Of a stretch of 64,000 nt of DNA, positions 1,061-63,800 are shown one piece after another (positions within the stretch are counted from its first letter, which is position 1; every line of letters starts with the position of its first letter). This DNA comes from Elsinoe ampelina. Lineage: Eukaryota. The stretch covers positions 368,832 through 432,831 of the forward strand of contig ML992506.1 of NCBI GenBank assembly GCA_010093995.1, read 5' to 3'. The position numbers and the translations under genes were made by a program. Under the pieces are notes generated by a model that was given only the letters and a program-made list of their open reading frames with translations, did not search any database and had not been told where the DNA came from.

Positions 1061-2733
1061 CTACCAATCGCTCTCTGTAAGGCGTACCCACAAGCCACCT
1101 TTGGGTTTCGAAGTAATACCTCCCACAATCTCAGCCTCATAGTCCTCCTTCTCAAACTCGCACTTGAACCGCCCCATGAAGGCCGCCATCAGGCACGAGA
1201 ACTCACTTTTGGCAAACCCCATTCCAATGCATGATCTAGGCCCGTGAAGAAAGGTTAAGAAGGAATAGTTACTGTCTGCGCCACCCTTGTTGGTCTGGCC
1301 TTCCTTGAGCCAACGTTCCGGGTCGAAGGTGAGGGCTGAGTCGCCCCAGAGCTCGTACGAGTTATTGGTAGCCCATGGGGCGATGATTATCAAGGTCCCC
1401 TTGGGAATCGGATGGTCTATGATGGTACTGTCTTGTGCCGCCACCCGCATGGTCAGCGAGACCGGAGCCCAGAGTCGCAGTGTTTCCTGAAGGACGGCGT
1501 TGAGGTACGGCAGGTTGTCGATCTGGTGGGAAGCGATCTTGCGTCCGGCCTTGGTCCGAGGTGATGGGAGATTGGCGTGAATTTCCTCCCGGAGACGAGT
1601 CTGAATCGACGGGTTCTTGCAGAGAAGATATATCGCCCAAAGCATCGCCGTTGACGTCGTCTCATGCCCCGCGACGAGGAACGTCATGAGCTGGTTGATG
1701 AGCTCCTCGTCGTTGAAGCCTCCAGACTCCATGGCGACAGACAAGATATCGAAGTCACGTGACTTTTTCAACTTGGCTCGCTTGTCCTGGATGAGCTTTT
1801 CGCACGTCTGACGGATGTACTTGCGAGCAGCCATGATCTCGTAATTCCTCTTCAAAGGAATGTTACGCATGAACCATCCGGGTAGAATTATACCCGCCAT
1901 TTGCAGATATCTTTGCCCCCGGGCAGGCTGAAATATGGCCTTATAATGCTGGCTCAGCGTGTTATTTGGGTCGGCAATCGATCCAAAGTCCTGGCCCAGA
2001 CCAGCAGTACCAATGATATCCAGTGTGGCACGAGAAGTGTACTCGCCGACCTCGACAACGTTCTGAGCGTGGCCATAGTCGGCTCCTTGATGAGCGATAT
2101 CGTAGGAGATCCTCTCAACAAGCTCATTAGACTTGTCCCAGAACGTCTGATATAGGTCCTTCACATGTCGGAAGGCGAAGGCGGGTGAGAGAGCTTTGCG
2201 TTGTCTCTGGATTGATGCATCAGCGAGGGTATCAATGCACGCTCCATATGACCGACCTTGTGCTCATCGCCCTCCGCAAGGAGGATACCAACTCCAAGGA
2301 TCCGTCCCAGACCTTCCCTCACAAGTTTTGGTTTGATAAACTCATAGTTCTTGGTGACGAGGACCTCGGCTATCGCCTTTGGGCTGGTGACCAGCACTCG
2401 CTCGTTGTTCAACCAGTGGAGGTATCTAATGAGTCCATTGTTTGGTACTTCATTGGCCCAATCTCTCATTGGAATGCCAGTGGGCTCTTTTGAGATACGT
2501 GCAGAATGTCCCATGAAGAGTGTAGCATTTGGTGGCGAAGGTAAGTCTCGAAGGGGGCTGAACATGTGTGGATAGATCAAGACTGCCCATACTGCCCACC
2601 CAAGGAATGCTCCAGAGAAGATGGCGAGACTGGTCAAGATAAAGGAGCCCCGTATAGTCATCTCAGGTTGGAAATGCGTGACAAGATACGCAGTCAGTGC
2701 CGAGACGGCGACCATCTTCTGTGTAGGAGGCAT
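1061..2733 (-). CDS. cytochrome P450 (CYP617/FUM15-like by impression)
   Basis: N-terminal TM segment, AGHETT I-helix, ETLR, PERW and FLHGPRSCIG heme motif. A GT-AG intron at 2207-2256 joins GDEHK|RQRK. Confidence 0.93.
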
Positions 2734-3331
2734 CGTAAGATCGTTGATGGCGCGTGGCATGGACCAGCAGGAGTTGAATTCGCAGATGTCCAACGTCTTT
2801 ATATCGACGACATCAGCTCTTTCGACGAAAGTGATGTTATCTCAGGAAGCCTTGATATATGAAACGTAGGGTGTTCAGGCCGACTTAGCCGGAACCGTTC
2901 TAGTGGGCGCGAGCGGGACGATATTGGCCCGTCAAGCTCGATCCTTCTATACGGCGCACCCAGTCGTCGTCAGTCTGCTTCAAGGACGGGCTGAGTGGAA
3001 TGATGCTGCCATGTCATGCACCGCGTTTCAAGGCATCCTGATTGGCTGGCATGATCGTCACAAGTTTGACCGGATTGTGACAAGCTTTGGCCGGATGATC
3101 CCGAAGGTCTCGTTAAACTGGAGGCCCGTGGGCTGAATGTCCTGCCTGTCGCTGTCCCCCGACTTTTCTTCTCTAGTTTCCCTCCATTCGGCCACGTGCA
3201 AAGATCCAGAGATGCAACCACGCACGTGTCGGAAGCTGTGATAGGGTCTATGTGGCGCCATCTGATGTATTGCAGACATGATCTAGCTTTCATCACCATC
3301 TCACCACTAGGATCCCCAGGACTGTTCAGCT

Positions 3332-4433
3332 TCAAGCTGCCAACTTCTCCTTCAAGATCTTCTCAGTCAACGACCAAAGTGCCTCCTGAAGCGCCTCATT
3401 CTTGGCCTCCTTGCTTGGGTCCGTCACTTTCCTATCAGGAACAATATACTGTCCCTGAATCTTCTCTTTGACGACATCCCCGCTCGTGGCCGCGAACAAG
3501 GCTGAGCGGCATCCTTCGTCAATTGGGTCTTTGAGGAATGGCTGTACTGCCTTGACACCGACCTTACCCATAGTACCATACGCTTCGACTGCTTGGCTCT
3601 GCTGGTCGGTCTTGACGCCTCCAGGGTGGGTGGCAATGATCCACGGGCCATGAGCGGTCCCGCCTTCGGTGAAGCCGAGCTCATTCCTCGAGGCGCGGCG
3701 AGCCAACGCAAGCACGAACAGGACCTGCGCGAGCTTGGTACGGTTGTACAGCTGCATCGCACCGATGTCGGTGTTCATTTCCTCTACAGACTCGAATTTG
3801 ACCTTGTCGTTGCCGCCACGGTGTAGATCGGAAGACTGCAGTACCAGACGAGAGTTTGGCGTCTTCTGAAGGACTGGCAAAAGGACCATCGCAAGGTGGA
3901 ACTGTGAAAAGAAGTTGACCTGCATGTGGGAGTCTCAAGGACAGTCAGTATCTGCTCGGGAAGCGCGGGGTGTGTATACTCACCAAGCCCATCGTCTGTC
4001 AACCAGAACGGACCAACTCCGAGACCTGCATTCAGGATCAAGGCATCAATTCTCTTGAGCTTGGAAAGCTCGGTGGCAACTTCGGCGGTCTGCTTAAGGT
4101 TCGCAAGGTCGCACTTCTTCCACTCGACCTTGTCGACATTGCCGTACTTTGTCAGCTCACGTTGAGCTTCATCTGCGTGGTCCTCTTTGTTGGAGAGCAG
4201 GTAGATCTTCTCTGGGCCCTTGGCAAGAATGTGTGCGACTATTCCGAATCCTATACCAGCTGATCCTCCAGTGACAATGAACACCTAATGAGTCAGCACC
4301 AGAGTGTGGCGACGGAGGGATGTCCGTTGATGGACTCGACCGAGCATGCAAACGGGCATGAACGTACCTTGCCAGAGAGATCCGGGATGTCACTCTTTGG
4401 GTCAAAGGTATTGCTAGAGCTGAAGAGGCCCAT
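3332..4433 (-). CDS. short-chain dehydrogenase/reductase (retinol-DH/WWOX-like)
   Basis: TGGSAGIG, LILNAG and YNRTK catalytic motifs. Introns at 4285-4367 and 3934-3983. Confidence 0.92.
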
Positions 4434-47137: not shown

Positions 47138-50100
47138 ATGTCTGCAAGGGCCACAGGAACAACACATGATCATAGGCGTACTACCTTCCTAATATCCAAT
47201 CTCCACTGCCCATCATGTATTTCGAGTATCGACCTCGCTCTGGCTCAGCTCTCACCCCGCCCAGCACTAGTGTCACACTCGATCATCAACCATACACTTA
47301 CTATCGAGCATCGACTACCACTCGACATGATCAGCCAAATCCTGGTTGACAATGGCTACGAAATTGATTCCTTGGCTTCGGATGAAGATGGGATACTTCG
47401 ATCGTTCTCCGAATGTGAGACGATAGCCTCCAAATCAGATACGCAAATGGACCAGACAGCGAGACTTCGTCACCAGGCAAATTGCAAGCAATGTCAATTG
47501 GAGATGCACAACATGGGAGATGACCGATCGCTTGCCGAGTCTCCATTAGTTGTCGTCGATTCACTGGACACGACGGAACTTGTACAGGCTACCATTTCCA
47601 TTGACGGCATGACATGTGCTTCATGCGTAGGGCATGTAGATAGGACCTTGAAGGAGAAACCTTGGATCAACAGCGTCGACATCAACTTACTGTCTGGCTC
47701 TGCAAAGGTAGTCCTGCATGGACGTCATCACCTTGATGAACTGATATCTGCCATCGAAGACGTCGGCTTCGACGCAGCAATTCAGGAGTCACAGAGCATT
47801 CGACATGGTCTTCCAAGAGAGGGCGCGACTTGTTCTGGCGGGGACGATGGCTCGACTAGAAGAAAAGTGGACATACACATTCTTGGCATCTACTGCCAGC
47901 ATTGCCCACCCAAGATCCAGCCCGTTCTCGAACCCTTCGTAACAGAATTTGGCCTCACCATTGAGCGCATGCCTACGGTCGAAAGCCCCATCTTACGCAT
48001 CACATATATCGCTCAGCCTCCTGTCTTCACCCTTCGCCGCATACTCGCAGCTATCACCTCCGCGGATCCAAACTTCAGCGCTACCATTGTTCGCCCAACG
48101 AGCATCGAAGAAAGAGCACGCATCATGCACGCCCGTGAGCAGCGAAACCTTCTGCGTCGGCTCATACTCTCTGGTATCGCAGTCATCCCCACCTTCATCA
48201 TCGGCATCGTCTTTATGAACTTGGTGGACGAGAATCAGCCTGGAAGAATGTACTTGATGGAGAAGCTGGTAGGAGTCTCGCGTGCCGAGTGGGCATTATT
48301 CATTCTCGCTACACCAGTATACTTCTTCGCCGCCGACATGTTCCACCGACGATCTATCAAGGAACTGCGAGTACTCTGGCAACCTCGAAGTCAAGTGCCA
48401 ATCTGGAAACGTTTCGTCCGGTTCGGGAGCATGAACACTTTGATCTCCTTTGGCACATCCATTGCCTACTTTTCGTCAATTGCGGAGCTCTCGGTGGCTG
48501 CGTCTCACAGTAAAGATCAGAACGCGGAAGTCACTACCTACTCGTACTTTGACAGTGCCGTCTTCCTCACTTTCTTTCTGCTCATTGGACGATTGATCGA
48601 GGCATATAGCAAGACCAAAGCTGGGGACGCTGTTGCTGCTCTCGGCAAGCTGCGTCCGGACGAGGCAGTGCTGGTCACTGATTCCGAGAACGGAACCACT
48701 GTCAACGTCGACCTGCTGGATGTAGGTGATCTGGTCAGAGTAACTCACGGCGGATCACCCCCTTGTGACGGTATTGTCACCACTGGCACGAGCACATTCA
48801 ACGAGTCGAGCCTGACAGGAGAGTCACGACCTGTCTCAAAAGCAATCGACGACCCAGTCTACTCCGGCACAGTCAACACAGGCAGCCCTGTGACGATCAA
48901 AATCACAGGAGCTGCAGGTACATCAATGCTGGACCAAATCATCGGCGCAGTAAGGGACGGTCAGACCAAACGAGCACCAGTCGAGCGTGTCGTCGACAGC
49001 TTGACCGCCTACTTCGTCCCTGCCGTCACACTTGTAGCCATCACTACCTGGATCGTCTGGCTGAGTCTCGGCTTGAGTGGAATGCTGCCAGAGTCCTATC
49101 GGGATAATCCGACTGGAGGCTGGCCCTTCTGGTCTCTGCAATTCGCCATCGCCGTCTTTGTCATCGCTTGTCCTTGCGGTATCGGACTGGCCGCTCCCAC
49201 TGCGCTTTTCGTCGGAGGAGGTCTGGCTGCTAAGCATGGCATCCTTGTCAAAGGCGGCGGCGAAGCTTTCCAAGAAGCGAGTCGTCTCGACTGCGTTGTG
49301 TTTGACAAGACCGGCACTCTCACTATGGGTGGTGAGCCTCGTGTCGTCGACTTTGAGCTCATCCCTGGCGTAGTGGAGGAGTCTCTGCTTCTATCCGCCA
49401 TCCTGGCCATCGAGTCATCAACCACACACCCAATAGCCAAAGCTCTCGTCACGCTCTGCCGCGACCGAGCCGCAGAGCCCATCAGTCTCCAAGAGGTTGA
49501 AGAAATCCCCGGCCACGGCATGCGAGGCATCACCACCTCCTCCCCTCCCCTCGAGGTCCTCATCGGCAACGAATCCCTCCTCACCACGCACTCCATCCCT
49601 CTCTCCCCCTCCCACCGCTCCCTCCTCACAACCTGGTCCACAGCCGCCAAATCCCTCGTCCTCATCGCCGTCCGCCACCCCTCCCACCCCTACTCCCTCG
49701 CCGCACTAGCCTCCACCTCCGACCCCCTCCGCCCCGAAGCCCCCTCGGTCATCTCCGCCCTCCACGCCCTCAACATCACCACCTACCTGCTCACAGGGGA
49801 CAACCCCCTCACCGCCCACGCCGTCGCTGCCTCCCTCTCCATCCCCCCCGCCAACGTCATCGCCGCCGTCCTCCCCACGCAAAAAGCCGCCCACATCCGG
49901 GCCCTCCAACGCTCTCTCGCCCCCGCGGGTCGGCGCGCAGTGATCGCCATGGTAGGCGACGGAGTCAACGACGCCCCTTCGCTCGCGGCGGCGGACGTGG
50001 GCATCGCGATCGGCTCCGGGAGCGACGTGGCGATTTCCGCGGCGCATTTTGTCTTGTTGCGGAGTGACCTGGGGGCTTTGCTGACGTTGGTGCGGTTGAG

Positions 50101-50329
50101 CAGGAAGGTGTTTGACAGGGTGAGGTGGAATTTCGGGTGGGCTTTGGTTTATAACCTGTGCGCGTTGCCGGTCGCGGCGGGGGTGTTGTTCCCCGTGGTG
50201 CTGGGCGGGAGCCATGTGAGGTTGGATCCGGCGTGGGCGGCGGCGGCCATGGCGGGGAGTTCGGTGAGTGTGGTGGGGAGTAGTCTTTTGTTGAGGACGG
50301 GGTGGTGGGGGGTGGGGTCTAGGGGGTGA
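47138..50329 (+). CDS. P1B-type copper-exporting ATPase (CrpA/Crp1-type)
   Basis: HMA motifs LHCPSC, GMTCASC and IYCQHC; TGES, CPC, DKTGT, HP, TGDN and GDGVND; YN and MxxSS in the last TM helices. Confidence 0.95.
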   Translation: MSARATGTTHDHRRTTFLISNLHCPSCISSIDLALAQLSPRPALVSHSIINHTLTIEHRLPLDMISQILVDNGYEIDSLASDEDGILRSFSECETIASKSDTQMDQTARLRHQANCKQCQLEMHNMGDDRSLAESPLVVVDSLDTTELVQATISIDGMTCASCVGHVDRTLKEKPWINSVDINLLSGSAKVVLHGRHHLDELISAIEDVGFDAAIQESQSIRHGLPREGATCSGGDDGSTRRKVDIHILGIYCQHCPPKIQPVLEPFVTEFGLTIERMPTVESPILRITYIAQPPVFTLRRILAAITSADPNFSATIVRPTSIEERARIMHAREQRNLLRRLILSGIAVIPTFIIGIVFMNLVDENQPGRMYLMEKLVGVSRAEWALFILATPVYFFAADMFHRRSIKELRVLWQPRSQVPIWKRFVRFGSMNTLISFGTSIAYFSSIAELSVAASHSKDQNAEVTTYSYFDSAVFLTFFLLIGRLIEAYSKTKAGDAVAALGKLRPDEAVLVTDSENGTTVNVDLLDVGDLVRVTHGGSPPCDGIVTTGTSTFNESSLTGESRPVSKAIDDPVYSGTVNTGSPVTIKITGAAGTSMLDQIIGAVRDGQTKRAPVERVVDSLTAYFVPAVTLVAITTWIVWLSLGLSGMLPESYRDNPTGGWPFWSLQFAIAVFVIACPCGIGLAAPTALFVGGGLAAKHGILVKGGGEAFQEASRLDCVVFDKTGTLTMGGEPRVVDFELIPGVVEESLLLSAILAIESSTTHPIAKALVTLCRDRAAEPISLQEVEEIPGHGMRGITTSSPPLEVLIGNESLLTTHSIPLSPSHRSLLTTWSTAAKSLVLIAVRHPSHPYSLAALASTSDPLRPEAPSVISALHALNITTYLLTGDNPLTAHAVAASLSIPPANVIAAVLPTQKAAHIRALQRSLAPAGRRAVIAMVGDGVNDAPSLAAADVGIAIGSGSDVAISAAHFVLLRSDLGALLTLVRLSRKVFDRVRWNFGWALVYNLCALPVAAGVLFPVVLGGSHVRLDPAWAAAAMAGSSVSVVGSSLLLRTGWWGVGSRG

Positions 50330-50749
50330 TGGGCGGGGATGCGGGGTGGGGATGGGGGAGGATGCTGATGAGGTTCAATGCTGGAGTCTAGAGAGAGCGA
50401 GATGCGACGGATTTAATAAGACACGTGAATGAACTTGCAAGTTGACCTGAACTCAGAGGCAGAACGAAGGAAAGCAGATTGTGCGACCTCATGATAACTC
50501 AAGTCACCGTTCTATCGACATGTCGGCGAAGGCAGGGAAGGTGAGGCGGGGACGGAATTCATCAAGTTCCATGGTCAAATCTAGGCAACCATGATATCCC
50601 AAGCCTCGCACCATTGAAGCACCGATCGAGTTGAGCAGGCGAGCGATAAGCAGCCATGCCACAATTGAATCGGTGCCTAACAGCCTCATATCTAGACCGG
50701 ACTGTTCGCTTCATGCTCTCGCGCGCTCAGTCCAAGTCCGACTCGCTCG

Positions 50750-51506
50750 ATGACAATGTATACAATCGCACCAGTGACCTATGCAGACGCTCCGGGGCTC
50801 GCAGAGGCCATGATGAGCGCCATGAACCAGGATCACCACTACGGTCTGTTACGCGCCAACGGTACCACCGACGAACTCATAGCAGAGTCGACCCTGCGTC
50901 TGCCGCACAATCTGCGCGAGAACCGGAGCTCGTTAAGACATCAGAAGGTCGTCCACACAATCACAGGGGAGATCGTGGGCTACGCTCGCTGGGAACTCCC
51001 CGAGCAGTATCGATCGGACGACATCTGGGCAGAGACTCAGCTCCCTGCCGCGACGGAAGCACAACAAGAGGGTTTCAAGCGGGATCTTGATGGGACACAA
51101 CCAGGGGGAGCTAGGAAGCTGTTTAATTATGACATGGCGAACTACCTGGGTCCAAGACTGGGCAAGCCATATAATGAGCTTGTGAAGAAGGGGGATCCTT
51201 ATCTTGGTGAGTGGATGTTTTCGAACAGAAGTTCTTCGATCCTGCTGACTTGGACGAGTCCTGGATTACATGGTTTGCCACCCAGCGCATCAAAGAAAGG
51301 GCATTGCTTCAATGCTGCTCGAGAGTGGTGAAGTCGAAGCTCGAAAGCTGGGTCTGAAGCTCTTTGTCATGACTTCTACGGATCCGGCAGGCAAGATATT
51401 TTATGAGAGCAGTGGGTTCAGGAATCTTCAGACGGTGACATTGGATGACTCGAAGTGGGGTGGCAAGACGCCACACGTGACATCTTATTTGGAGAAGGAG
51501 GTCTGA
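50750..51506 (+). CDS. GNAT N-acetyltransferase
   Basis: GEIVGYARW and VLDYMVCHPAHQRKGIAS motif A across an intron at 51207-51258, plus FYESSGF. Confidence 0.88.
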
Positions 51507-52358
51507 AAGAGATCCGGCAGCGCTCTGTTGAATACGAAAGGCCAGGTCGAGGATGATGGGCGATATAATGCCATGCTGGACAGATCTCGTGAGGAAGTTT
51601 TCTTCAAGCCCATCCATTTTTCACGACGCTGTCGCACCTTCCTCGTCCGCTACATCCAAGCGACTCACACCTCGTTTTTTTTACGCGTGTACTTCGTGAC
51701 TATTCTTCCTTTTTACGTGACAAATATCATAATCTAAATTGTTTCATTATGTACACTGAAGCTGACGTCGCTACCGCCCTAGACGGCTATCGACACGAGC
51801 GATTTATCTCTCTAAACGCTGCTGCCGACGCGTTTAAAATCCTACGTGCTACACTTCGATATCGATACTACAGCCGACAATTACGACATATATATAACGA
51901 AGGACGTTAATTACTATCTCCGGCCGAAGAACAGACACTTGTAGCCTACGTCCTTTAGCTCGATAGCCTTAGAACACCTATAACGCCTTACTTCATCCGT
52001 AAGCTTGTTTATAAGATAGTTCAACGTCGAACATGTTAAATAGACTACCAACTTCCCCTGTCTCTATCGCGGCCGATTAGTCGAATATAGATACGACGAC
52101 TATATAAATGTCATCCGTAGATTAAGATAGCTTAGTTACGGCAGCTAGAGTCTTCACGCTATAAAGCTAGAACGTACGAGGCTATTACACCGTTCTTCGA
52201 CGCGTTATCCGACTTATTCGAATAACACAACTATCTACCTTTAGACGTCTATAACCTCGACGAGGTAGGCGCTAGTGTCGGTTTAATATAATCGACATAG
52301 GTAGTCGTTAGTACCGAAAACAACCAACGCTAGAAGAAGGTTAGAAAACGCGTCGTTA

Positions 52359-53108
52359 ACGTGACCCACCCACGAGTCGCGCACCCCCACAATTCGCGCA
52401 CGCCCCTATATATATAACGCGTAATCTTCGTGACTATTCCTTCTTCCTACGTGACAAACATCATTCTTCGAGCTGTTTTATATGTATTCTGAAGCAGATA
52501 TTAAAGCTGCTCTCCGAGGCTATCGGAACAATACTTACGACTCGATTCGACAAGCTGCCGACGCGTTTAAGATTCTGCCTTCTACGCTTCGAGATAGGCT
52601 TCACGGCCGACAATCACGTACTACACGTAATCTACCGAAGCAGTTACTATCTCCGGCCGAAGAAGAGACGCTCGTTAGTTACCTCTTTCAGCTCGATCAC
52701 TTAGGAACGCCTGCGACGCCTTTATTGACCTTAGAGCTTGTTATTGAGATAATTCGTCACCGAGCACGTCTATCCGACAATAACCTTCCCTCGTCTCTAT
52801 CGCAGCCTATCGGTAAGAATTGGCTTAGCCAACTACGAAAGCGTCATCTACGTCTACAAAGCCTTTAGACTCGACAGCTAGAATCGTCACGGATAAAGGC
52901 TAGAACGTACGAGGCTATTACGCCGTTCTTTAACGCGTTATCCGACTTGTTCGAAAAGCACAACTATCCGCCAACAAACGTGTATAACCTCGACGAGGTA
53001 GGTTGTACAGTCGGTACAACGCAGTCGATGCGTGTACTAGTTGACGCTACAAACACACAGCGTCGAAAGAAGGCTAGAAAACGCGTTGTCGGCCGACAGG
53101 AATAGATA
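52359..53108 (+). mobile_element. element B: 5' half of a Fot1/pogo transposon
   Basis: TA|ACGTGACCCACCCACGAG TIR, then HTH-region ORF 52482-52868 with RIP-type stops and YNLDEVG. The 3' half is absent. Confidence 0.88.
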
Positions 53109-53840
53109 ACGTGACTCACCCACGAGCGGTTCGTCCCCACGAGCGGTTCACAAAGTTACTTTTTTGTACCTTTTTAGTAATATCTCTACGAACTATAGCT
53201 AATATAGCTTTAAATTTAAGATAGGACTAGTAAGATATTAGAACTATAAGTTGTATCAAAGACACTATATAAAACTTAGAAGTGCTATTATAATATAGAC
53301 TTTTAGATTTCTAAAATTTACTACTAATTTTCTTAATAAATATTTATATAGAAGAGGTAATTTAGAATATTTACTATATTTAGTTAGATATAAGATAGAT
53401 AGTAGAAGTATTAAGCTCTTATAGTAGCTAAGTCTAAAAAGTAGCTTTAAAAACTTAAAAATTTTATTTTTAGGTTAAATTCTCTTAAAAACTAGATTAT
53501 CTCTTAATAGAGATATATTTAATACTAGAATAATATAATATAATATAAATTTTAGTAGTAGCTATATAATATTTCTTCAATTCCTTATTATAACTCTCTT
53601 AAAGCTAATATATAGCTAATTTAAGTTATAAAATCTAGAAAACTTAATATCTAAATACTAGTAGTAGTTAAGCTTCTATAGTAATAAGATTAGTAGTATA
53701 TATAGATCTATAGAGTATCTAGCATTATATATAATATTAGGCTAGGATATTAAGGTTTTATAGAGATATTACTAAAAAGGTAAAAAAAGCTAATTTTGTA
53801 AACCGCTTGTAGGGACAAACCGCTCGTAGGTGAGTTACGT
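53109..53840. mobile_element. element C: 732-bp non-autonomous AT-rich TIR element
   Basis: ~80-bp imperfect TIRs starting ACGTGACTCACCCACGAGCGG and ending ..GTGAGTTACGT, TA on both sides, and a TpA-saturated interior with no ORF. Confidence 0.88.
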
Positions 53841-54914
53841 TATACAAGGCCAAAAACCTCAAAACAAACTGGATTCCAGATCCGTGGCCGGCTGGATGGC
53901 GTTTTTCAACGTCGAATAAAGGCTGGACGAGTGACGCGCACGGATTTGAATGGCTATCGACTGTCTTCGAGCCCGAAACACGTGACGTCGACGGCCGTCG
54001 ACGCCTCCTCGTTCTAGACGGCCATAGCTCGCACGTTACAGCTGCGTTCGCCTTCTTCTGCTTCGAGCACGATATCGACCTTGTAGTGTTCCCCCCTCAC
54101 GCATCGCATATCCTCCAACCGCTTGACGTCGCATGTTTTTCGCCGTTAAAGACAGCTCTTACGAGGGAGATCGACAATCTGATGCGTCTAGATCACGGCC
54201 GAATACAACGTATACAATGGACAGAATCCTACGTAATTGCGAGATTACGTGCTTTAACCGAACGAAATATTAAATCTGGCTTTGCGCATTCTGGTATCTA
54301 TCCGATAAGCCCTATTACCGTCCTTGCCAATTTGCCACACGAAGCACGTGATCGTCCGGTTACACCAACGGAAAACACAACGGAAAACGGCCAATTCGAC
54401 TCGGAAGTCTTGCGGTTAGGGTCGCCACAATCCGGCGCAAGCTTACGTACGGTCAACCGTAGTCTCAACGCGCGTATGGCCGTCGTCGACGTCGAAACAC
54501 CGGTAAAGCGATATATCTCGAAAATGACGTCACAGATAGAGTCGTCAACTACGTCTCTTACGTTACTCCAGCGCGAAATTGAACAACAGCGACAGCTTCT
54601 TGAGACGCGTAAGCGTAAGAAAAGTGGTAAGCGCATCGCTGTCGAAGGCCGGTTCGTCTTTAGTGAGCAAGAGACTATCGATATCCTCCGTGAGGCCGAA
54701 GCGGCGTCAAAGAAGAAGAAGGGCAAAAAGCGTAAAAAAACGCCAACGCCGGATCCTACACCGGAGGAATCAGAAGAGGAGGTTCGTTATGAGGCACCTG
54801 ACGATTCAGAAGACGAGCTAGCTTGATTTAATAGAGCAATTGAAGAATTTACCTCGTTGACGCTGTTTTGTGTGAACCGTTTGTGGGGATGAACCGCTCG
54901 TGGGTGGATCACGT
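53841..54914 (+). mobile_element. element D 3' half (DDE catalytic region and right TIR)
   Basis: Stop-free frame 53843-54826: YKAKNL..GWTSD..LVLDGHSSH..QPLDVACF. The TIR ends GGATCACGT at 54914. Confidence 0.92.
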
Positions 54915-55719
54915 TATAACAAGGGGGGGTAGCGCGTTACCGGAGGCTCGTATACACTCCAGAATTGATATCCACTCTTGTCGGCCGACGACGCGTTTTC
55001 TAGCCTTCTTTTGACGGTGAGTGTCTGCGGCACTAACTAGTACACGCGTCGACTGCGTTGTTCCGACGGTACAGCCTACCTCGTCGAGGTTATAGACGTT
55101 AGAAGAGGGATAGTCGTACTTTGCAAACAAGTCGGATAACGCGTTAAAGAACGGCGCAATAGCCTCGTATGTTCCAGCTTTTATCCGTGACGATTCAAGC
55201 TGCCGTGACCAAATGCTTTTTAATCGCGGATGACGTTTACGTAGCCGGAATAGCCAATTCTTGCCGATAGGCTGTGATAGAGACGTCGGAAGAGTGTTGT
55301 TCGAAATGCGTGATCTGTGACGGATAATCTCGACGACGAGCTCTAGTGCGAAGAAGGGTGTTGCCGGTGTTCCTAAGTCATTAAGCTGAATAAGATAGTC
55401 GATAAGCGACTCTTCTTCGGCCGGAGATAGTAGTTGACGTGGTAGGTTCCTTGTATTACGCGATTGTCGTCCTTGTAATCGGCCAACAAGTGTCGTAGGT
55501 GGAATTTTGAACGCGTTAGCAGCCTTTCGGATTGAGTCGAATTGGTCGTGTTGATAGCCGTAGATAGCAGCCTGAACGTCTGCCTCAGTATACATAATAG
55601 AATAGCTCAAATTATGATGTTTGTCACGTAAGAAGGAAGAATAATCACGAAGGTTACGCGTTAAAAAAGACAAGGTGTGGACCGTTTGTGGGGATGAACC
55701 GCTCGTGGGTGGATCACGT
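54915..55719 (-). mobile_element. element D 5' half (left TIR, HTH region and first catalytic Asp)
   Basis: Stop-free frame from ATG 55595 to ..LPPLVI at 54915. Its TIR 55681-55719 is identical over 39 bp to 54876-54914. Confidence 0.92.
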
Positions 55720-55809
55720 TAATAGAAAAGAATATCAAAGCTAGCTTCGAACACTCTAGTATCTATCCGATAAGCCCTATTACGGTGCTTGCCAATTTGC
55801 TATAAGTTA

Positions 55810-57686
55810 ACGTGACTCCCCCACAAACGGTATATCCCCACGAGCGGTACAGACCCCTTTTTTCGACGCGCGCCAATTTCGTGACTATCCTTCCTTCTTA
55901 CGTGATAAACATCAGAATTTGAATTTATTTATCATGTATACCGAAGCTGATATTCAGGCTGCTATCTACGCCTACTAACACGAAGAATACGACTTAATTC
56001 GAAAGGCTACTGACGCGTTTAGTATTCCGCCTACAACGCTCTACGGGCAATTACAAGGACGACAATCACGAACTACACAGAATCTACCGCGTCAATTACT
56101 ATTACCGGCCGAAGAAGAAGTACTTATCGACTATCTTAACTAGCTCGATAGCTTAGGAACGCCTGCAACGCCGTACTTTGTACTAGAGCTCGTTGTCGAG
56201 ATAATCCGTCACCGAGTACGTGTTCCAGACAATACACTTCCAACGTCTCTATCACAGCCTATTGGCAAGAACTGGCTATTCCGGCTACGGAAACGATATC
56301 TACAACTACAAAGCCTTTGGTTACGGCAGCTAGAATCGTCACGGATGAAGGCTGGAATGTACGAGGCTATCGCGCCGTTCTTCGACGCGTTATCTAACTT
56401 GTTCGAACGTTACAACTATTAACCTTACGACGTCTATAACCTCGACGAAGTAGGTTATATAGTCGGAATAACGTAGTTGACACGTGTACTAGTTACTACA
56501 GAAAACAACCATTATCGAAAGAAGGCTAAGAAACGCGTTATCGGCCGACAGGAGTAGATATCAATTCTAGAGTATATACGAGCCTCTAGAGATGCGCTCC
56601 CCCTCCTCGGTATTTACAAGGCTAAAAACCTTCGAACAAACTGGATTCCGGACCCTTAGCCGGCCGGATGGCGATTCTTAACGTCGAATAAAGGCTAGAC
56701 AAGTGACGCGCACGGCTTTAAGTGGTTATCGACAGTGTTTAAGCCCGAAACACGTAACGTCGACGGCCGTCGACGCCTCCTTGTTCTAGACGGCCACAGC
56801 TCGCACGTTACGGCCGCATTTGCTCTCTTCTGTTTCGAGCATAATATCGACCTTGTTGTGTTCCCCCCTCACGCATCACACATCCTCCAGCCGCTTGACG
56901 TAGCTTGTTTTTCACCGTTAAAGACAGCTCTTACGAAAGAGATCGACAACCTATTCCGCCTCGATCCAGGCCGAGTACAGCGTATATAGTGGGCCGAATC
57001 CTACGCGCGCGCACGAGAACGTGCTCTAACCGCAAGGAACATCAAATCTGGTTTCGAACACTCCGGCATCTATCCGATAAGTCCTATTACGGTGCTTGCT
57101 AATTTGCCACGTGAATCACGTGACAAATCGCCTAATCGGGCAATTACTCCAACGGAAAGCGGCCAATTCGACTAAAACACCTTGCGGTTAGGGTCGCCAC
57201 AATCCGGCGTAAGCTTACGTACGGTCAACCGTAGTCTTAACGCGCGTATAGCCGTCGTCGACGTCGAAACACCAGTCAAGCGATAGATCTCGAAAATGAC
57301 GTCACAATTTGAATCGGCAACAACGTCCCTTATACTACTCCGGCGCGAGATTAAACAACAGCGGCAGCTTCTTAAGACGCGTAAGCGTAAGAAAAGTAAT
57401 AAGCGCGTTGCTATCGAGGGCCGGTTTGTCTTTAGTGAGCAAGAGACAATTAATGTCCTTCGTGAGGCCGAAGCAGCGTCAAAGAAGAAGAAGGGCAAAA
57501 AGCGTAAGAAATCGCTTACACCGCTAACTACACCGGAAGAATCAGAAGAGGAACAGCCACCGGATCGACCATCTGATTCAGAAGACGAACTAGCTTGATC
57601 TAATAGAGCAATTACATGATTTATGTTGTTAGTGCTATTTTACGCGTACCGCTTGTAGGGATGTACCGCTCGTAGGTGGATCACGT
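55810..57686 (+). mobile_element. element E: full-length 1877-bp Fot1/pogo transposon, RIP-inactivated
   Basis: TA|ACGTGA...TCACGT|TA. Transposase 55934-57598 carries many TGG>TAG and CAA>TAA stops, but the DDD motifs are retained. Confidence 0.93.
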
Positions 57687-60600
57687 TATAAATCACGTAA
57701 CAAATCGCCTAATCGGGCAATTACCCCGACGGAAAACAGCTAATTCAACCAAAGAGTCTTACGGTTAGGGTCGCCACAATCCGGCGCAAGTCTATGTACG
57801 GTCAACCGTAGTCTTAACGCGCGTATGGCCGTCGTCGACGTCGAAACACCAGTTAAGCAATATATCTCGAAAATGACGTTACAATTTGAATCGTCGACGG
57901 CGGCCTTAGCACTACTATAACGGGAAGTTGAACAACAGCGGTAGCTTCTAGAGACGCGTAAGCGTAAGAAAAGTGGTAAGCGCGTTACTATCGAAGGCCG
58001 GTTTGTCTTTAGTGAGCAAGAAACAATTAATATCCTTTGTAAAGCCGAAGAAGAGATAAAGAAGAAGAAGGGCAAAAAGCGTAAAAAATCGCTTACGCCG
58101 CTAACTACACCAGAGGAATCAGAAGAGGAAGAGCTAATGCCTATACAGCCTGATTCTAGAGACGAACTAGCTTGATTTAATAGAGCAATTATATGATTTA
58201 CCTCGTTGATGCCTTTTTGTGTGAGTCGCTCGTGGACGTGCGTCGATTGTGGACGCGCGACGTTAATCCAAGTTACCACATCAAGGTTCTTCACTCACTC
58301 GTTGCACAGCTTTCTCTTCCATTCCTCGCCTGCTGCACCACGACTTATCACGTCCTACCTAAGCTAATCCTAACTTACCTCGTTCGTCAAGATGGAGTGA
58401 TTGGATGATGCAATCGCACACGAGAGATTTGGGGCAGAGGGCATTGACACGATCGTCTTGGACAATGATTCTTGGGTTCGCGATCTTTCATGAAACTGTG
58501 CGGCTCGAATGAAACTGGCGAGATGTTCTTCACCTCTATCTGCAGGTGAGATCATGTCAAGGAAGAACGATGCGGAACAGTGGCTTAAGGACTGATGATC
58601 ATTCAGGAAGCCACCAATGAAATCTGCGACCTAGCACCTTGATGTTGGAGACTTGCTAGTAAGTTATCAAGTCGACAAGTCTGTGGTTTTGGACTGATCA
58701 GATATAATCTTTGATCGTAAAGTCAAATCAGCATTGTCAATATCGCGCTGGCTGTTCGGTCTCAAACATCTATGACGCTGTCAACGGAGCTCAAGCTCGT
58801 GGGAGAAACGACAATGAGTTTTGATCGAGATGCGATGGCGGCACAGTTGTCGAATCGCACAGGCTGAACGTCCACGAGAGGAAGGATGAAGCTGCACAAA
58901 TGCGCTTTCCAGATTGACAGCCAATGGAGCTGTTCTTCCTCGTGAATCAACCTAGTCAACTTGAGTCAGGGGCAAATCAGGCATCAGTGAGAACTGCTCA
59001 AGATTCTGCCACAATCTAAGTAATTTTCAAGTCACCACGCAATATACGATGGCACAGAATGAGTCTCATCATGAAGATGTTTGTGAGTGAGGTAAGTTGC
59101 CTTTTAATCTGTTGTACAAATCTGCCCGAGTTTTGATTCATCCTTGACTCTTACTCGACCTCATTGAATTGATCGAGTCAACTCTTTGACCTGGGCGAAA
59201 ACGAAGTTTCTTTTGACTTGCTCAAAGTGGGAGTCCATTGTCAACTCGATTGCAGAAGGCGCGAGCGACCACGCGGACCCGAGTTCTCAGAGTTGACTCA
59301 AGGTCATGACATGGAGAGAAGGAGCGATTGAGTGACAAAAATGACTTGCAGTTTGTTGTGACTTTTCTTGCTTGGCTCTACACAAGCGAACCAATCAGTG
59401 CTCGGATCACGATCTGTTGTGCCACTATTTTGCGTCGTTTCGAATCTGGTGCGCCGTTGCCTGTGAAGCAAGAGATCGGACCAGCTCGCCAATGTCGATT
59501 CATAAAGGTCGCTCCTTCCTAGCCTGTCGAGTCACCATCAGAAAGTTGACGTGAGCGATTTGTCTTCTCATGGTTATCTTCAGAAGGCGAGATCCGAGGA
59601 CAATAGAGGATCCAAGTGATCGAGTGCATGGGACGGTCCAGTGCATAGGACGGTCGTTATTCGAGACTGCCAGAATGAGGAGTCGAAGAAACCTTAGGAC
59701 GCTCTTGTGTGGTAAGAGTGCTCACAGACCGAGCAGAGTAGAAAAGCACCTGACTTGCCTCGACGAACCTTCCAGACTAGACCCAGAGTATACATATACG
59801 GTGCTCGAGAACTCGATCCATCTCGATTTTGGCGCGAACGAAAGTTGTTGGCTCAAAATCAGACGTGAGGCGTGGTTACCTTGCAGAGCGATGTCGGAGC
59901 GTCGAAGTCCGATGACGGCTAGGTGGAGCCTGCTGAAGTTCGTGAACGCGTTCTTCCATCGTTCATTACATCAATTACATCGGGTCTTTAAAGAACCATC
60001 ACTAAGTTAACTAGTTAGAACTACCATGATTCTCTACAACTTCATCTATCGACCCAAACGTTTCAAAGTGATCTCAGCAATCACGTTCCTTTCCTTCACT
60101 CGAGCCAACATTCTCTGGATCCTTTCCGACCTGCCACTGGATTCGTCGGTCGTCTCTAATGGTGTGGTCTTGATACCCGCAATCGCTTTGTGCGCTGGGT
60201 GTGTTCTGGAGCTTTTCTTGGAACATGTCTCTCTTGGTAACATCGCCTGTCTTCTAATCTGCGATTGACTTAACTTACCCTCCTCAGCTTCTCTTCCTTC
60301 TCGGCCAGTTGATCATCGACGACGCCCTTGTCAAGCAGCACGGCACAGCTGCTTGACATCGCGTTCAGCTGCTGCAAGGCTCCTCGTGAGACTCTTGACC
60401 TGCTCCTGCGCTGACTGACTAATTTCTCGGTCCTCTTCATGTGCAACATCCGACGTGTTGATCTCGTTCGCCAGATTGCATAATTAGGCATGGCACGACA
60501 AAAGTCTGCAGGCAATCGAATAAGTTAGAGAGAGACGTGCTTGTTCCTGCCACACTCAGTCAGCAGATTGGGCAAGTGGCTGCCTTTTCGGCACGAAGGG

Positions 60601-60810
60601 CAGCAAGAGGAATGATGACAGTGATGATGATCTCGTGAGCTTGCCGCTGCGAGCACAGCGCTTTGGCCAGATTGTCCACGCCGACCACAGGAGACCGGAA
60701 CGAATCTCCAATGCAGCGACGATGGTGTTTGGTGGAAAAACACGGAAAGTGTCGATGAGGGAGCTCGCGACAGCGCAACGGGACTAAAGTGGGCCGATCG
60801 CTATTGCCCT

Positions 60811-63800
60811 TCACCGCAGAACCGGGGTATCCGCCTTCAAGAACAACAGCCATTGCTCGACCTGTGCCTGCCTCGAATTGTCCGCATAATGCTTCGACAT
60901 CAAGCCTCGCATCTTCTCAAACAGACCAGCCGCCTCTTGTTGCCGGCCTAGCGACGACCAGAACCTCCCAAGATTGTGCATCATCTGCAGAGTATACGGA
61001 TTGTGTTCCGACAGGGCCGAGGAGCGGAGCTCGACGCTTTTCTCAGCGAGCTCGGCGGCGACTCCAGTCTGACCCACCTTGTCCAGGAGCGTTGTGAACT
61101 CGAACATGGTGTGCAACGTCTGAGGATAATCAACAAGGCCGGATTGACGGTGCTCGTGCACGCATGTGGTGACTAGTTTGGTAGCTTCTGGGACGTGGCC
61201 CTGATGGTAGTGTATCACTGCTCTCAGGACGCTGAGAGACACTCGAGCAGGATGCTCCGGTCGAATTCGACGTCTGACCTGCTCAAGTGCTCCATCAATG
61301 ACGGCGGCTGCCCTTTCCCACTGCTGATGCTGAGCGAGGGCAAGAACATAGTACTCTGTAAATGGCCAGGGACAGGATTGACTATCGGTCCGTATCTCGG
61401 TCATGTACTGGTCGCCCAGCTGGAGGGCGCTGTCGTAGTCGCCTGTATCGAGATGTGCCCTCAATTTCAAGCAAGCGACAGCCTCTGGCATGGAATCCCG
61501 CAAAGTCAGATCGTCACCCTCGAACGGACCATCGGCTGTGAACTTGACCGGAACGTTGCTGATCAGATCCAATGCTTCCGAGGCAAAACCAGATCTCAAT
61601 GAAGCCTCGACCAAAGGGATACAAAAGGCGGCAGTGTGTAGACGTCGAGATCCCAATCCTTTCGTAAAGGCGTCGTACCAATGCCGAGCGTGGGTATAGG
61701 CACGTTGGACTTCCCATGTGTCAAGAAGTATGACCGGTAGGTACCTTGAAGTCTTCACCACGAACTCGTAAGTCGAGTGGTATAGGGACTTCAGGTGCCA
61801 CTCTGCATTACCAAAATCGGGTCGCTCTTTCTCAAGACTGTCCCAGAGCGACTCAATCAGAGGCGCAGCCATTTGGTAGCGGCCTCCAGCATGGAATGAT
61901 ATAGCGACATTAAGCAGTCCCGAGAGCTTGTCGTTGAAAATCTTGCGCACTTTGGCACCAAGAAGGGGTCTACACAGATCCATAGCCAGATCTTGATCTC
62001 CTTTCAAAGCGTGAAGAGCCGCAATGTTGGCTCTGATGGTAGTCGTTGAGGCGACATAGGTTTCGAACTGAAAGTCGATTCTCTTGCAATAGGTCTCAGA
62101 ATGGGTGACCATCTGCGTGCGCAGGTCGTCCCAGTCATCATTCTCCCCCTTGAGTAGTTGGCGTATGCAATACTCTATGGTATTTGATCCTCTGTGAGCA
62201 GGAAAATTTTCGAAGCAGTTGAAAGCGGTGTCAGCAATGGCGATGCGACTCCGCCAGGCAGCAGATCTACTGGGTTTCGACCTCTTGAAGCCACGAGATC
62301 CATCGAGAGCAACTCTGCTGATCACCCAAGCGTGCGTTTTGGGGTGCATTGATATGTTCTTGAACGACTCCTCCGGATTGACGAGTATCGACAGCGAAAC
62401 AAGAAGCGTTACAGCTTCCCGGAATGGTCGATGATCGAATCTTGGATTGTCTTTGCCAGGAAGCGAGCGGAGCAATCGAATACAGCATTGGTGAGGGGGT
62501 GACATCTCTCGACCCAGGATCTTGATATCGTCGATACTGGCTGATATAAAAGCCGCATGGAATAGATCTTCGGAGATACCGTCAAAGTGAATCAACGATA
62601 TAAAATCCAGCAGAGCTAGGGCATCCTTTGCAGTTTCTCCCTCGAGCGATTTGATGTAAGACACAGCAACGTCCAAAGTGTCGTCTATAGATATCGTGGG
62701 TTGAGGTTGATGACTTGGAATAGAGCTGAGCGTCGTACTCGAGGACGGCGCCGGTGACAACAAAGGTCGTTCGCCAGGCAATTTCGAACTTGACATAGTA
62801 TGTGCTTCTGCAGTTGCTTCGGATACCATTCCATGATATTCGTGGATCTGATAACCTCGTTGCTGAAGATATGAGCCAGCGTTGACAATGGCCAGTGGTA
62901 AGTGGCCAAGTAGAGCTACAAGGTGCATGGCTTCCTGTCGTTCTTGTTGTGAAGTGGGATGGTCAGAGTCGAAGGTGTGAGCAAGGAGCAGATCGCAAGC
63001 TTCGGTCGCCTCCATCTCTTTGAGATGTAGCTTCCCAGTGATCTCAAAATCTGCTCGGAATTGACCTCGAGAAGTTATCAGGACAGTCCCTCTTGAGCTG
63101 AAAGGAAGCACCTCGGAGAAATCTATGTCTCTGTTGTCCGCATTGTCCAGAATCATCAGCCAAGGTTTGTCCAGATTAGCGATCCATTGTATCATCTCTT
63201 CAGTGTCGTCCTGGCGATCAGGAAACATTGACCGATATCCACGCTGCAGAGAGTTCTTGATCAGTAGCTCCGACGAAGCATCGATCCAGAAAACGGCGTA
63301 ATAGCTAGCAATGTCAGCAGCAGAAAGCATGTGGTTTGGCACAAAGAACGTACTGATCACGAAACTCCCATGCGTATTTGAGACATAGCGACGTCTTGCC
63401 CGAACCTCCTTGACCGAAGATTGCAAACACAAGCATGCCTCGCCGCGACTGGTCATACTCTCTTCGACAGCATTGTACGATGCGCTCAAAATCATCGTGT
63501 CTACCGGTGAACGCTTTCGGCGGAGTTCGTCTCAAGGTCCATATTTTATTGAATGGCTCCTCGCGCTGGGCGGCGACTTTTTCAGACCGCCTTACCGCAG
63601 AGCGAGGAAGGACGTAAAGTATCTCCTTCATGAATGCTGCAGCAGTGGCAGCTGCATATGGCTGCCATCGTTTGTTCTTGTGAGAGTCGGCATAATCGCA
63701 AATACCTCGAATGACCAGACAGCCAAAATTATCCATCATGCCAGCAGCCTCCATTTCCACGCATAGCAGCCCTTCCTCTTCTAGCGACTCACGATAGACC

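Follow-up and report, generated by a model that had tools for sequence, protein, structure and literature searches.

The grapevine pathogen Elsinoe ampelina, a dothideomycete, carries a nest of related DNA transposons on contig ML992506.1 of assembly GCA_010093995.1, and within it we find what is probably the scar of an intramolecular reversed-ends alternative transposition, made in one event by a pogo/Fot1-like family. We analysed a 64,000-nucleotide window of the contig (forward-strand positions 368,832 to 432,831), in whose own numbering all positions below are given; the nest spans about 51623-58263, and its elements are here called A to E. On balance, and a shade less firmly, we favour a more specific account of the scar, in which a pogo/Fot1-like transposase paired its own end (the right end of D) with the end of a miniature inverted-repeat transposable element (MITE; element C) and inserted the pair into the body of its own element, deleting 1.6 kb, inverting 1.07 kb and killing the last intact copy in the nest.

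To describe the nest we used its full-length copy, E (1877 bp), as a ruler for all pieces. BLAST of E against the whole window confined matches to the E family to 51675-58218, where they fall into ten pieces, and the borders were fixed to the base from end strings together with junction strings (Table 1). The order, read directly from the assembly, is A5'-B5'-C-TA-D3'(+)-TA-D5'(-)-TA-Afrag-E-A3', in agreement with the piece order and strands of a preliminary description of this stretch. All elements start with ACGT followed by G, A or C and finish in ...ACGT, and TA flanks 8 of the 9 element ends in the nest, the exception being the left end of A, which is flanked by TC. That end lies at about 51623, which places the start first proposed for A (51630, with TA as its flank) 7 nt inside the element. 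The left terminus of A (in the region 51610-51670) is decayed, and 16 of 45 ungapped positions of its terminal repeat match the right partner.

Two segments are missing from this arrangement. Using E as the BLAST query, we found no match anywhere in the window for element positions about 752-1877 of B (about 1126 bp) or for positions about 735-1217 of A (about 483 bp), values close to the earlier estimates of ~1.1 kb lost from the 3' half of B and ~0.5 kb lost from the middle of A.

The observation on which the analysis turns is that D is one element cut at one TA, with TA now at both cut faces. Its two pieces and the TA (803 + 2 + 1072 bp) sum to 1877 bp, the length of E. Read in the sense direction, D5' ends in ...CCTTGTTA and D3' begins TACAAGG, and both halves of the coding sequence are intact. 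Frame 1 of D5' is free of stops over all 803 nt, running from MYTEAD... to ...LPPLV with one spare base, and its open reading frame (ORF) is open from the ATG at 55595 to the break; frame 0 of D3' runs from YKAKNL... to a natural stop without an internal one. For either coding part, none of 20,000 base shuffles was stop-free (0/20000), and the best frames of E, B5', A5' and A3' hold 2-12 stops. Because both halves of D are open, a state that shuffling never reproduced, and the other copies contain stops, we take D to be the youngest element of the nest, intact until recently and probably active. Alignment to an independent full-length relative, P0006 (557 aa), places residues 4-221 on D5' and residue 223 onward on D3', so that the break amounts to exactly one codon, or one residue. 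This bears out the earlier proposal that the two cut faces are the sides of one duplicated TA within V-I-Y.

A 39-nt direct repeat occupies 54876-54914 and 55681-55719; the two copies are identical, as previously described, the next base differs, and TA follows both. Over 45 positions the left and right terminal repeats of D agree at 44, the first 39 being identical, and they are the best match among the 36 pairs that can be formed from the nine ends. The left end of D still stands at a TA followed by A sequence, and E has TA at the equivalent position, which indicates that D entered A by an ordinary minus-strand insertion and that only its right end has since moved.

We considered whether the two halves might have other origins. 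D5' is 78.3% and D3' 82.0% identical to E, a gap smaller than that between the two halves of A (A5' 64.6%, A3' 81.6%); an assignment of D5' and D3' to different subfamilies, the refutation envisaged at the outset, is therefore unsupported within the window. In every pair that we compared, the 5' halves are the more diverged. We also reject the idea that D3' is the 3' half of B left behind after the insertion of C: B5' reaches only to element position 749, D3' begins at 806, and B5' has stops and a stronger bias resembling repeat-induced point mutation (RIP), whereas D3' is open. D itself (53843-55719) has a RIP-like composition despite its open ORF: TpA/ApT is 0.9-1.2 versus 0.43-0.44 in the flanks (49000-51600 and 58300-61000), and (CpA+TpG)/(ApC+GpT) is 0.68-0.75 versus 1.3. 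The whole D/E family is rich in CpG and TpA.

D3' matches the Pfam domain DDE_1 (PF03184; 1.9e-23), the catalytic domain, and D5' matches HTH_psq (PF05225; 1.8e-4, above the cut-off). HTH_Tnp_Tc5 (PF03221) had no match in D5' at E<=0.01; it is among the precomputed domains of many full-length relatives, and such relatives in the protein collection (550-565 aa) carry DDE_1, HTH_Tnp_Tc5 and HTH_psq. A protein search with D3' returned no near-identical intact copy of D, the best relatives being 52% identical. Further traits of the family are a TA target duplication, the 1877-bp length of D and E, and terminal inverted repeats of about 45 bp. Judged by sequence, the family belongs to the pogo branch of the Tc1-mariner superfamily; 'Fot1' is a label carried over from the preliminary description.

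The two inner joints of the nest are built alike, each consisting of an element terminus (...ACGT), a TA and the interior of D. Joint 1 is the exact right terminus of C, TA and D3'; joint 2 is the exact right terminus of D, TA and D5' on the minus strand. Besides the duplication of one TA, no base has been lost or gained at the target site. Two transposon ends flanking a single duplicated TA are the mark of a transposase-made integration. With D3' in plus and D5' in minus orientation, the segment that runs from the right end of D to the target is inverted. Recombination between terminal repeats does not provide a source of these joints, as the interior of D at the break has no terminal-repeat homology.

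From this configuration we infer a single event, in which two ends were paired, and a progenitor ordered A5'-B5'-C-B3'-Amid-D-Afrag-E-A3', with D intact on the minus strand and the right ends of C and D facing each other across about 1.6 kb. A transposase, plausibly that of D given that its ORF remains open in both halves, would have paired the right end of C with the right end of D. Both ends would then have been cut free, with B3' and Amid released and lost, and would have been inserted at a single TA within D, at a distance of 1072 bp from its right end. Joining in the orientation that flips the 1072-bp D3' would set the end of C against D3' and the right end of D against D5', leaving a copy of the TA at each joint and destroying D.

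We ran a symbolic, label-only simulation of this reaction from the predicted progenitor (A5' B5' C B3' Amid D3'(-) D5'(-) Afrag E A3'), cutting at the right ends of C and D, dropping the intervening DNA and attaching the two freed ends to the TA that separates D3' from D5'. Of the two outcomes that this allows, outcome 2 is the observed order, and the reaction releases exactly B3' plus Amid, about 1.6 kb. The inversion, the two deletions and the two unusual joints are thereby explained by one event, and it is this parsimony that supports it. The reversed-ends event proposed in the preliminary description is accordingly supported as a probable explanation, every prediction of it that could be tested having held.

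The second end in this reaction would come from C, which is a MITE of the D/E family with several identical copies. Its inverted arms are 80 nt long and 87.5% identical, its GC content is 0.25, TA stands on both sides of it, and its likeness to the ends of D and E is limited to the terminal ~45 nt. Two short-read runs from one sample of one study, assembled into unitigs, contain 0.75-0.77 of the sampled words of the stretch. Unitigs from the interior of C have a depth of 672-732 versus about 190 in the flanks (about 3.5-3.9x), with 0 differences. Together with the match of its left end to the right end of D (39/45), this depth indicates a recently mobile non-autonomous partner. On its left side C sits in B at a TA in the same place as a TA in D (position 750), which looks like an ordinary insertion into B, and B does not resume on its right side. 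At 53108, contigs continue into ordinary element sequence instead of C, indicating B-like copies without the MITE elsewhere.

Table 1. Features of the transposon nest, in window positions. Element positions are counted on the 1877-bp element.
Feature	Positions	Strand	Description	BLAST identity to E	Basis of border
A5'	about 51623-52356	+	Oldest element, element positions about 1-732; degenerate left terminus, flanking dinucleotide TC; at least 10 stops in every frame	67%	
TA	52357-8		Site of B insertion into A		
B5'	52359-53106	+	Element positions 1-749; TA + ACGTGACC terminus	75%	
TA	53107-8		Site of C insertion into B		
C	53109-53840	+	732-bp non-coding MITE belonging to this family; the event would have used its right end together with that of D		
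TA	53841-53842		First copy of the duplicated target, between C right terminus and D3'		Junction strings
D3'	53843-54914	+	Element positions 806-1877; right terminal repeat 54870-54914	82%	
TA	54915-54916		Second copy of the duplicated target, between D right terminus and D5'(-)		Junction strings
D5'	54917-55719	-	Element positions 1-803; left terminal repeat 55675-55719	78.5%	
TA	55720-55721		Surviving copy of the duplication from the first insertion of D into A		Junction strings; E has TA at the equivalent place
A fragment	55722-55807	+	Element positions about 1220-1300; between D left end and E	86%	
TA	55808-9		Left TA of E, in A		
E	55810-57686	+	Full-length 1877 bp, decayed, 11-13 in-frame stops; inserted into A		
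TA	57687-8		Right TA of E, in A		
A3'	57689-58263	+	3' part of A with right terminal repeat	84%	
TA	58264-5		Flanks A right end		

The target of the event has features of its own. D contains 109 TA sites. It had a single TATATA run, besides which there are five runs of TATA, and the split TA belonged to the TATATA (window positions 53841-53848 and 54910-54920). The sites at which A, B and D are broken, element positions 733, 750 and 804, lie within 72 bp of one another (p about 0.004 if sites were uniform, an approximate value), which makes a preferred target likely and suggests an insertion hot spot in the region of 733-804 of the element.

The short reads bear unequally on the different borders. 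The unitigs considered here are 16 of 887 pieces, with 12 of 43 loose ends. Unitigs with the depth of the flanks run across the outer borders of the nest and show 0 differences; one of them spans the right border of A3'. All 30 bins are covered. At the inner joints, for which the preliminary description had called for a check by long reads or PCR, the pieces listed include no bridging unitig. No contig in the two runs contains an unsplit D5'-D3' join, which favours the model weakly, as contigs show presence and not absence. Within the nest, bins reach 10-50x flank depth; D-like 3' sequence seemingly exists in more near-identical genome copies than the D5' part at 55235-55638.

Several observations weigh against a single reversed-ends event. 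The right end of C, which together with the right end of D is predicted to be a shared transposase substrate, matches the latter at 35 of 45 positions; it differs from the left end of C at 6 of 45, every difference being C>T or G>A, and its use by the transposase is an assumption of ours. None of the 16 of 887 pieces listed bridges 53840/53841 or 54914/54915. A 404-bp unitig of D5' (55235-55638) has the single-copy depth of 190, and the bins of D3' (53834-54715) have depths of 1769-4282, 9-22x that of the flanks. A progenitor or intermediate allele was not seen, and a metagenome scan returned 0 matches to the junction of the D end with D5'. The suggested hot spot and the TATATA, in turn, make independent repeat hits at the same TA less improbable.

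This last point matters for the most serious competitor, a multi-step route that arrives at an identical final sequence. Here A would have received a minus-strand copy of D (D2), the TATATA of D2 would have been the insertion site of another copy of D (D1), and a second C would have entered D1 at the same TA; recombination between the direct copies of C would then have deleted B3', the middle of A, the 3' part of D2 and the 5' part of D1. Self-nesting is indeed common in this family, with five family-into-family insertions in the nest and, in run X2, a contig that joins 56869 through TATA to the left end of B (52357), another case of self-nesting elsewhere. Several identical copies of C exist, as the route demands, and both the position of the split TA in the only TATATA of D and the clustered break points fit a preferred target. 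Where our model needs one event, this route adds four: another D, another C, two hits on the same 1 of 109 TA sites, and a deletion. The halves would moreover come from different copies of D, yet they fit to the base and in frame, and their ends match at 44 of 45 positions; the window shows no remnant of another D or another C. We consider this route unlikely, while giving it more weight than the two explanations that follow.

That one or both inner joints are chimeric, created by assembly in a repeat-rich stretch, has in its favour the multi-copy nature of the family, seen in the bins of raised depth, the lack of bridging by any of the listed unitigs, and the fact that the runs contain only 0.75-0.77 of the sampled words. 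Misjoins between repeats, however, fall in shared sequence, and each of these joints is an exact terminus followed by TA and a non-homologous interior; taken together, the two have complementary break points and amount to a target duplication of exactly 2 bp. The support of the outer borders and the covered bins also speak against an artefact, and no alternative joint was reported. We judge it improbable. Non-homologous end joining after double-strand breaks, for instance after an abortive excision and without a part for transposase in the joining, seems very improbable indeed: cut-and-paste excision is generally known to break DNA at element ends, and its repair can rearrange the surroundings, but end joining is unlikely to yield two complete termini, an exact TA and one shared break in D with neither loss nor filler.

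The kind of event that we propose, a reversed-ends transposition, is already known, including in a fungus and in the Tc1-mariner superfamily. The literature that we found on alternative or reversed-ends transposition concerns maize, rice, Arabidopsis and Drosophila, and the process is thoroughly characterised for Ac/Ds and P elements. In excerpts of the maize Ac/Ds work, reversed-ends transposition acts on facing ends that are separated by a short inter-transposon segment, and it generates inversions and deletions with a target duplication at the joints (PMC8225341, PMC1592236). In so far as these excerpts describe it, the Ac/Ds analogy drawn in the preliminary description is apt: two neighbouring facing ends are used together, the intervening segment is lost, a site close by receives the insertion and the joints carry the target duplication. 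Ac/Ds elements, by contrast, are hAT transposons with an 8-bp duplication, whereas the element described here is of pogo/Tc1-mariner type and duplicates TA; the maize events were caught live and their progenitors are known, and ours is a fossil without one. Unlike in Ac/Ds, the partner end here would be that of a MITE, and the target would lie inside the autonomous element itself.

A closer precedent is impala, a Tc1-mariner element of Fusarium oxysporum, for which the use of termini of different elements is stated to result in deletions and inversions (excerpt of PMC1592236, citing Hua-Van 2002). By that brief account, the likeness extends to a fungal host, a TA-duplicating member of the Tc1-mariner superfamily and ends contributed by different elements. 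The impala family differs from the DDE_1/pogo-type element studied here, and the scar described here is a natural one. The aberrant transposition of impala described by Hua-Van et al. in 2002 was reportedly observed in what was perhaps an experimental system. The preliminary description had left open whether such events are on record in fungi; for impala there is this cited case in the excerpt, and for pogo elements we found none in the literature searched. Other fungal genome papers, in the portions that mention alternative transposition, invoke it as a possibility only (PMC6535813, PMC6679389). In the literature searched we likewise found no natural scar in a pogo-type family that combines a MITE end as partner with an autonomous element as target.

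Related reactions occur in more distant systems. In Sleeping Beauty, also of the Tc1-mariner type, suicidal autointegration inserts an end into the body of the element, which is thereby destroyed (excerpt of PMC3952818). As that excerpt has it, autointegration follows complete excision and the attacking ends both belong to the element itself, whereas here the left end of D stayed in place and the second end would have come from a neighbour. The similarity to P elements is that the ends of two element copies act as one transposon; in P elements sister chromatids or homologues typically supply these ends, the superfamily is another and the duplication is 8 bp. For the P elements of Drosophila, hybrid element insertion, reportedly described by Gray, Tanaka and Sved in 1996, is said to insert the ends of two copies nearby and to produce inversions and deletions. 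In the inside-end inversions and deletions of bacterial Tn10/IS10, the inner ends of two adjacent insertion sequences hit a nearby target, the intervening DNA is lost and the adjacent segment is inverted; the transposase family is different and the duplication is 9 bp.

To the left of the nest, the stretch 47138-51506 holds a copper-ATPase ORF, with its stop at 50327-9, and downstream of it separate ORFs, an acetyltransferase-like one ending near 51506; on the other side of the nest, unique DNA starts at 58266. An Elsinoe ampelina NCBI protein of 1823 aa, to which the copper-ATPase ORF is 99% identical, also has copper-fist and acetyltransferase domains; the 1823-aa model may be a fusion of adjacent genes, or the ORFs may be connected through introns. 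At the 3' end of the copper-ATPase ORF, 49350-50400 is GC-rich (0.62-0.71), and the GC skew flips from -0.59 to +0.58. As the nest is intergenic, the rearrangement probably has no effect on the host.

For the family, a clean scar of this type in a pogo-type element would show that the reaction occurs naturally in the superfamily, that the end of a MITE is usable in it and that the source of the transposase can be destroyed by it. Such scars leave a signature suited to a genome-wide search: a terminus, TA and the interior of a family member, occurring twice with complementary break points. If hybrid-end events such as the one proposed here are common, the nests of fungal pathogens would be reshaped by the chemistry of transposases, beyond nesting, recombination and RIP, and MITEs would inactivate their autonomous partners.

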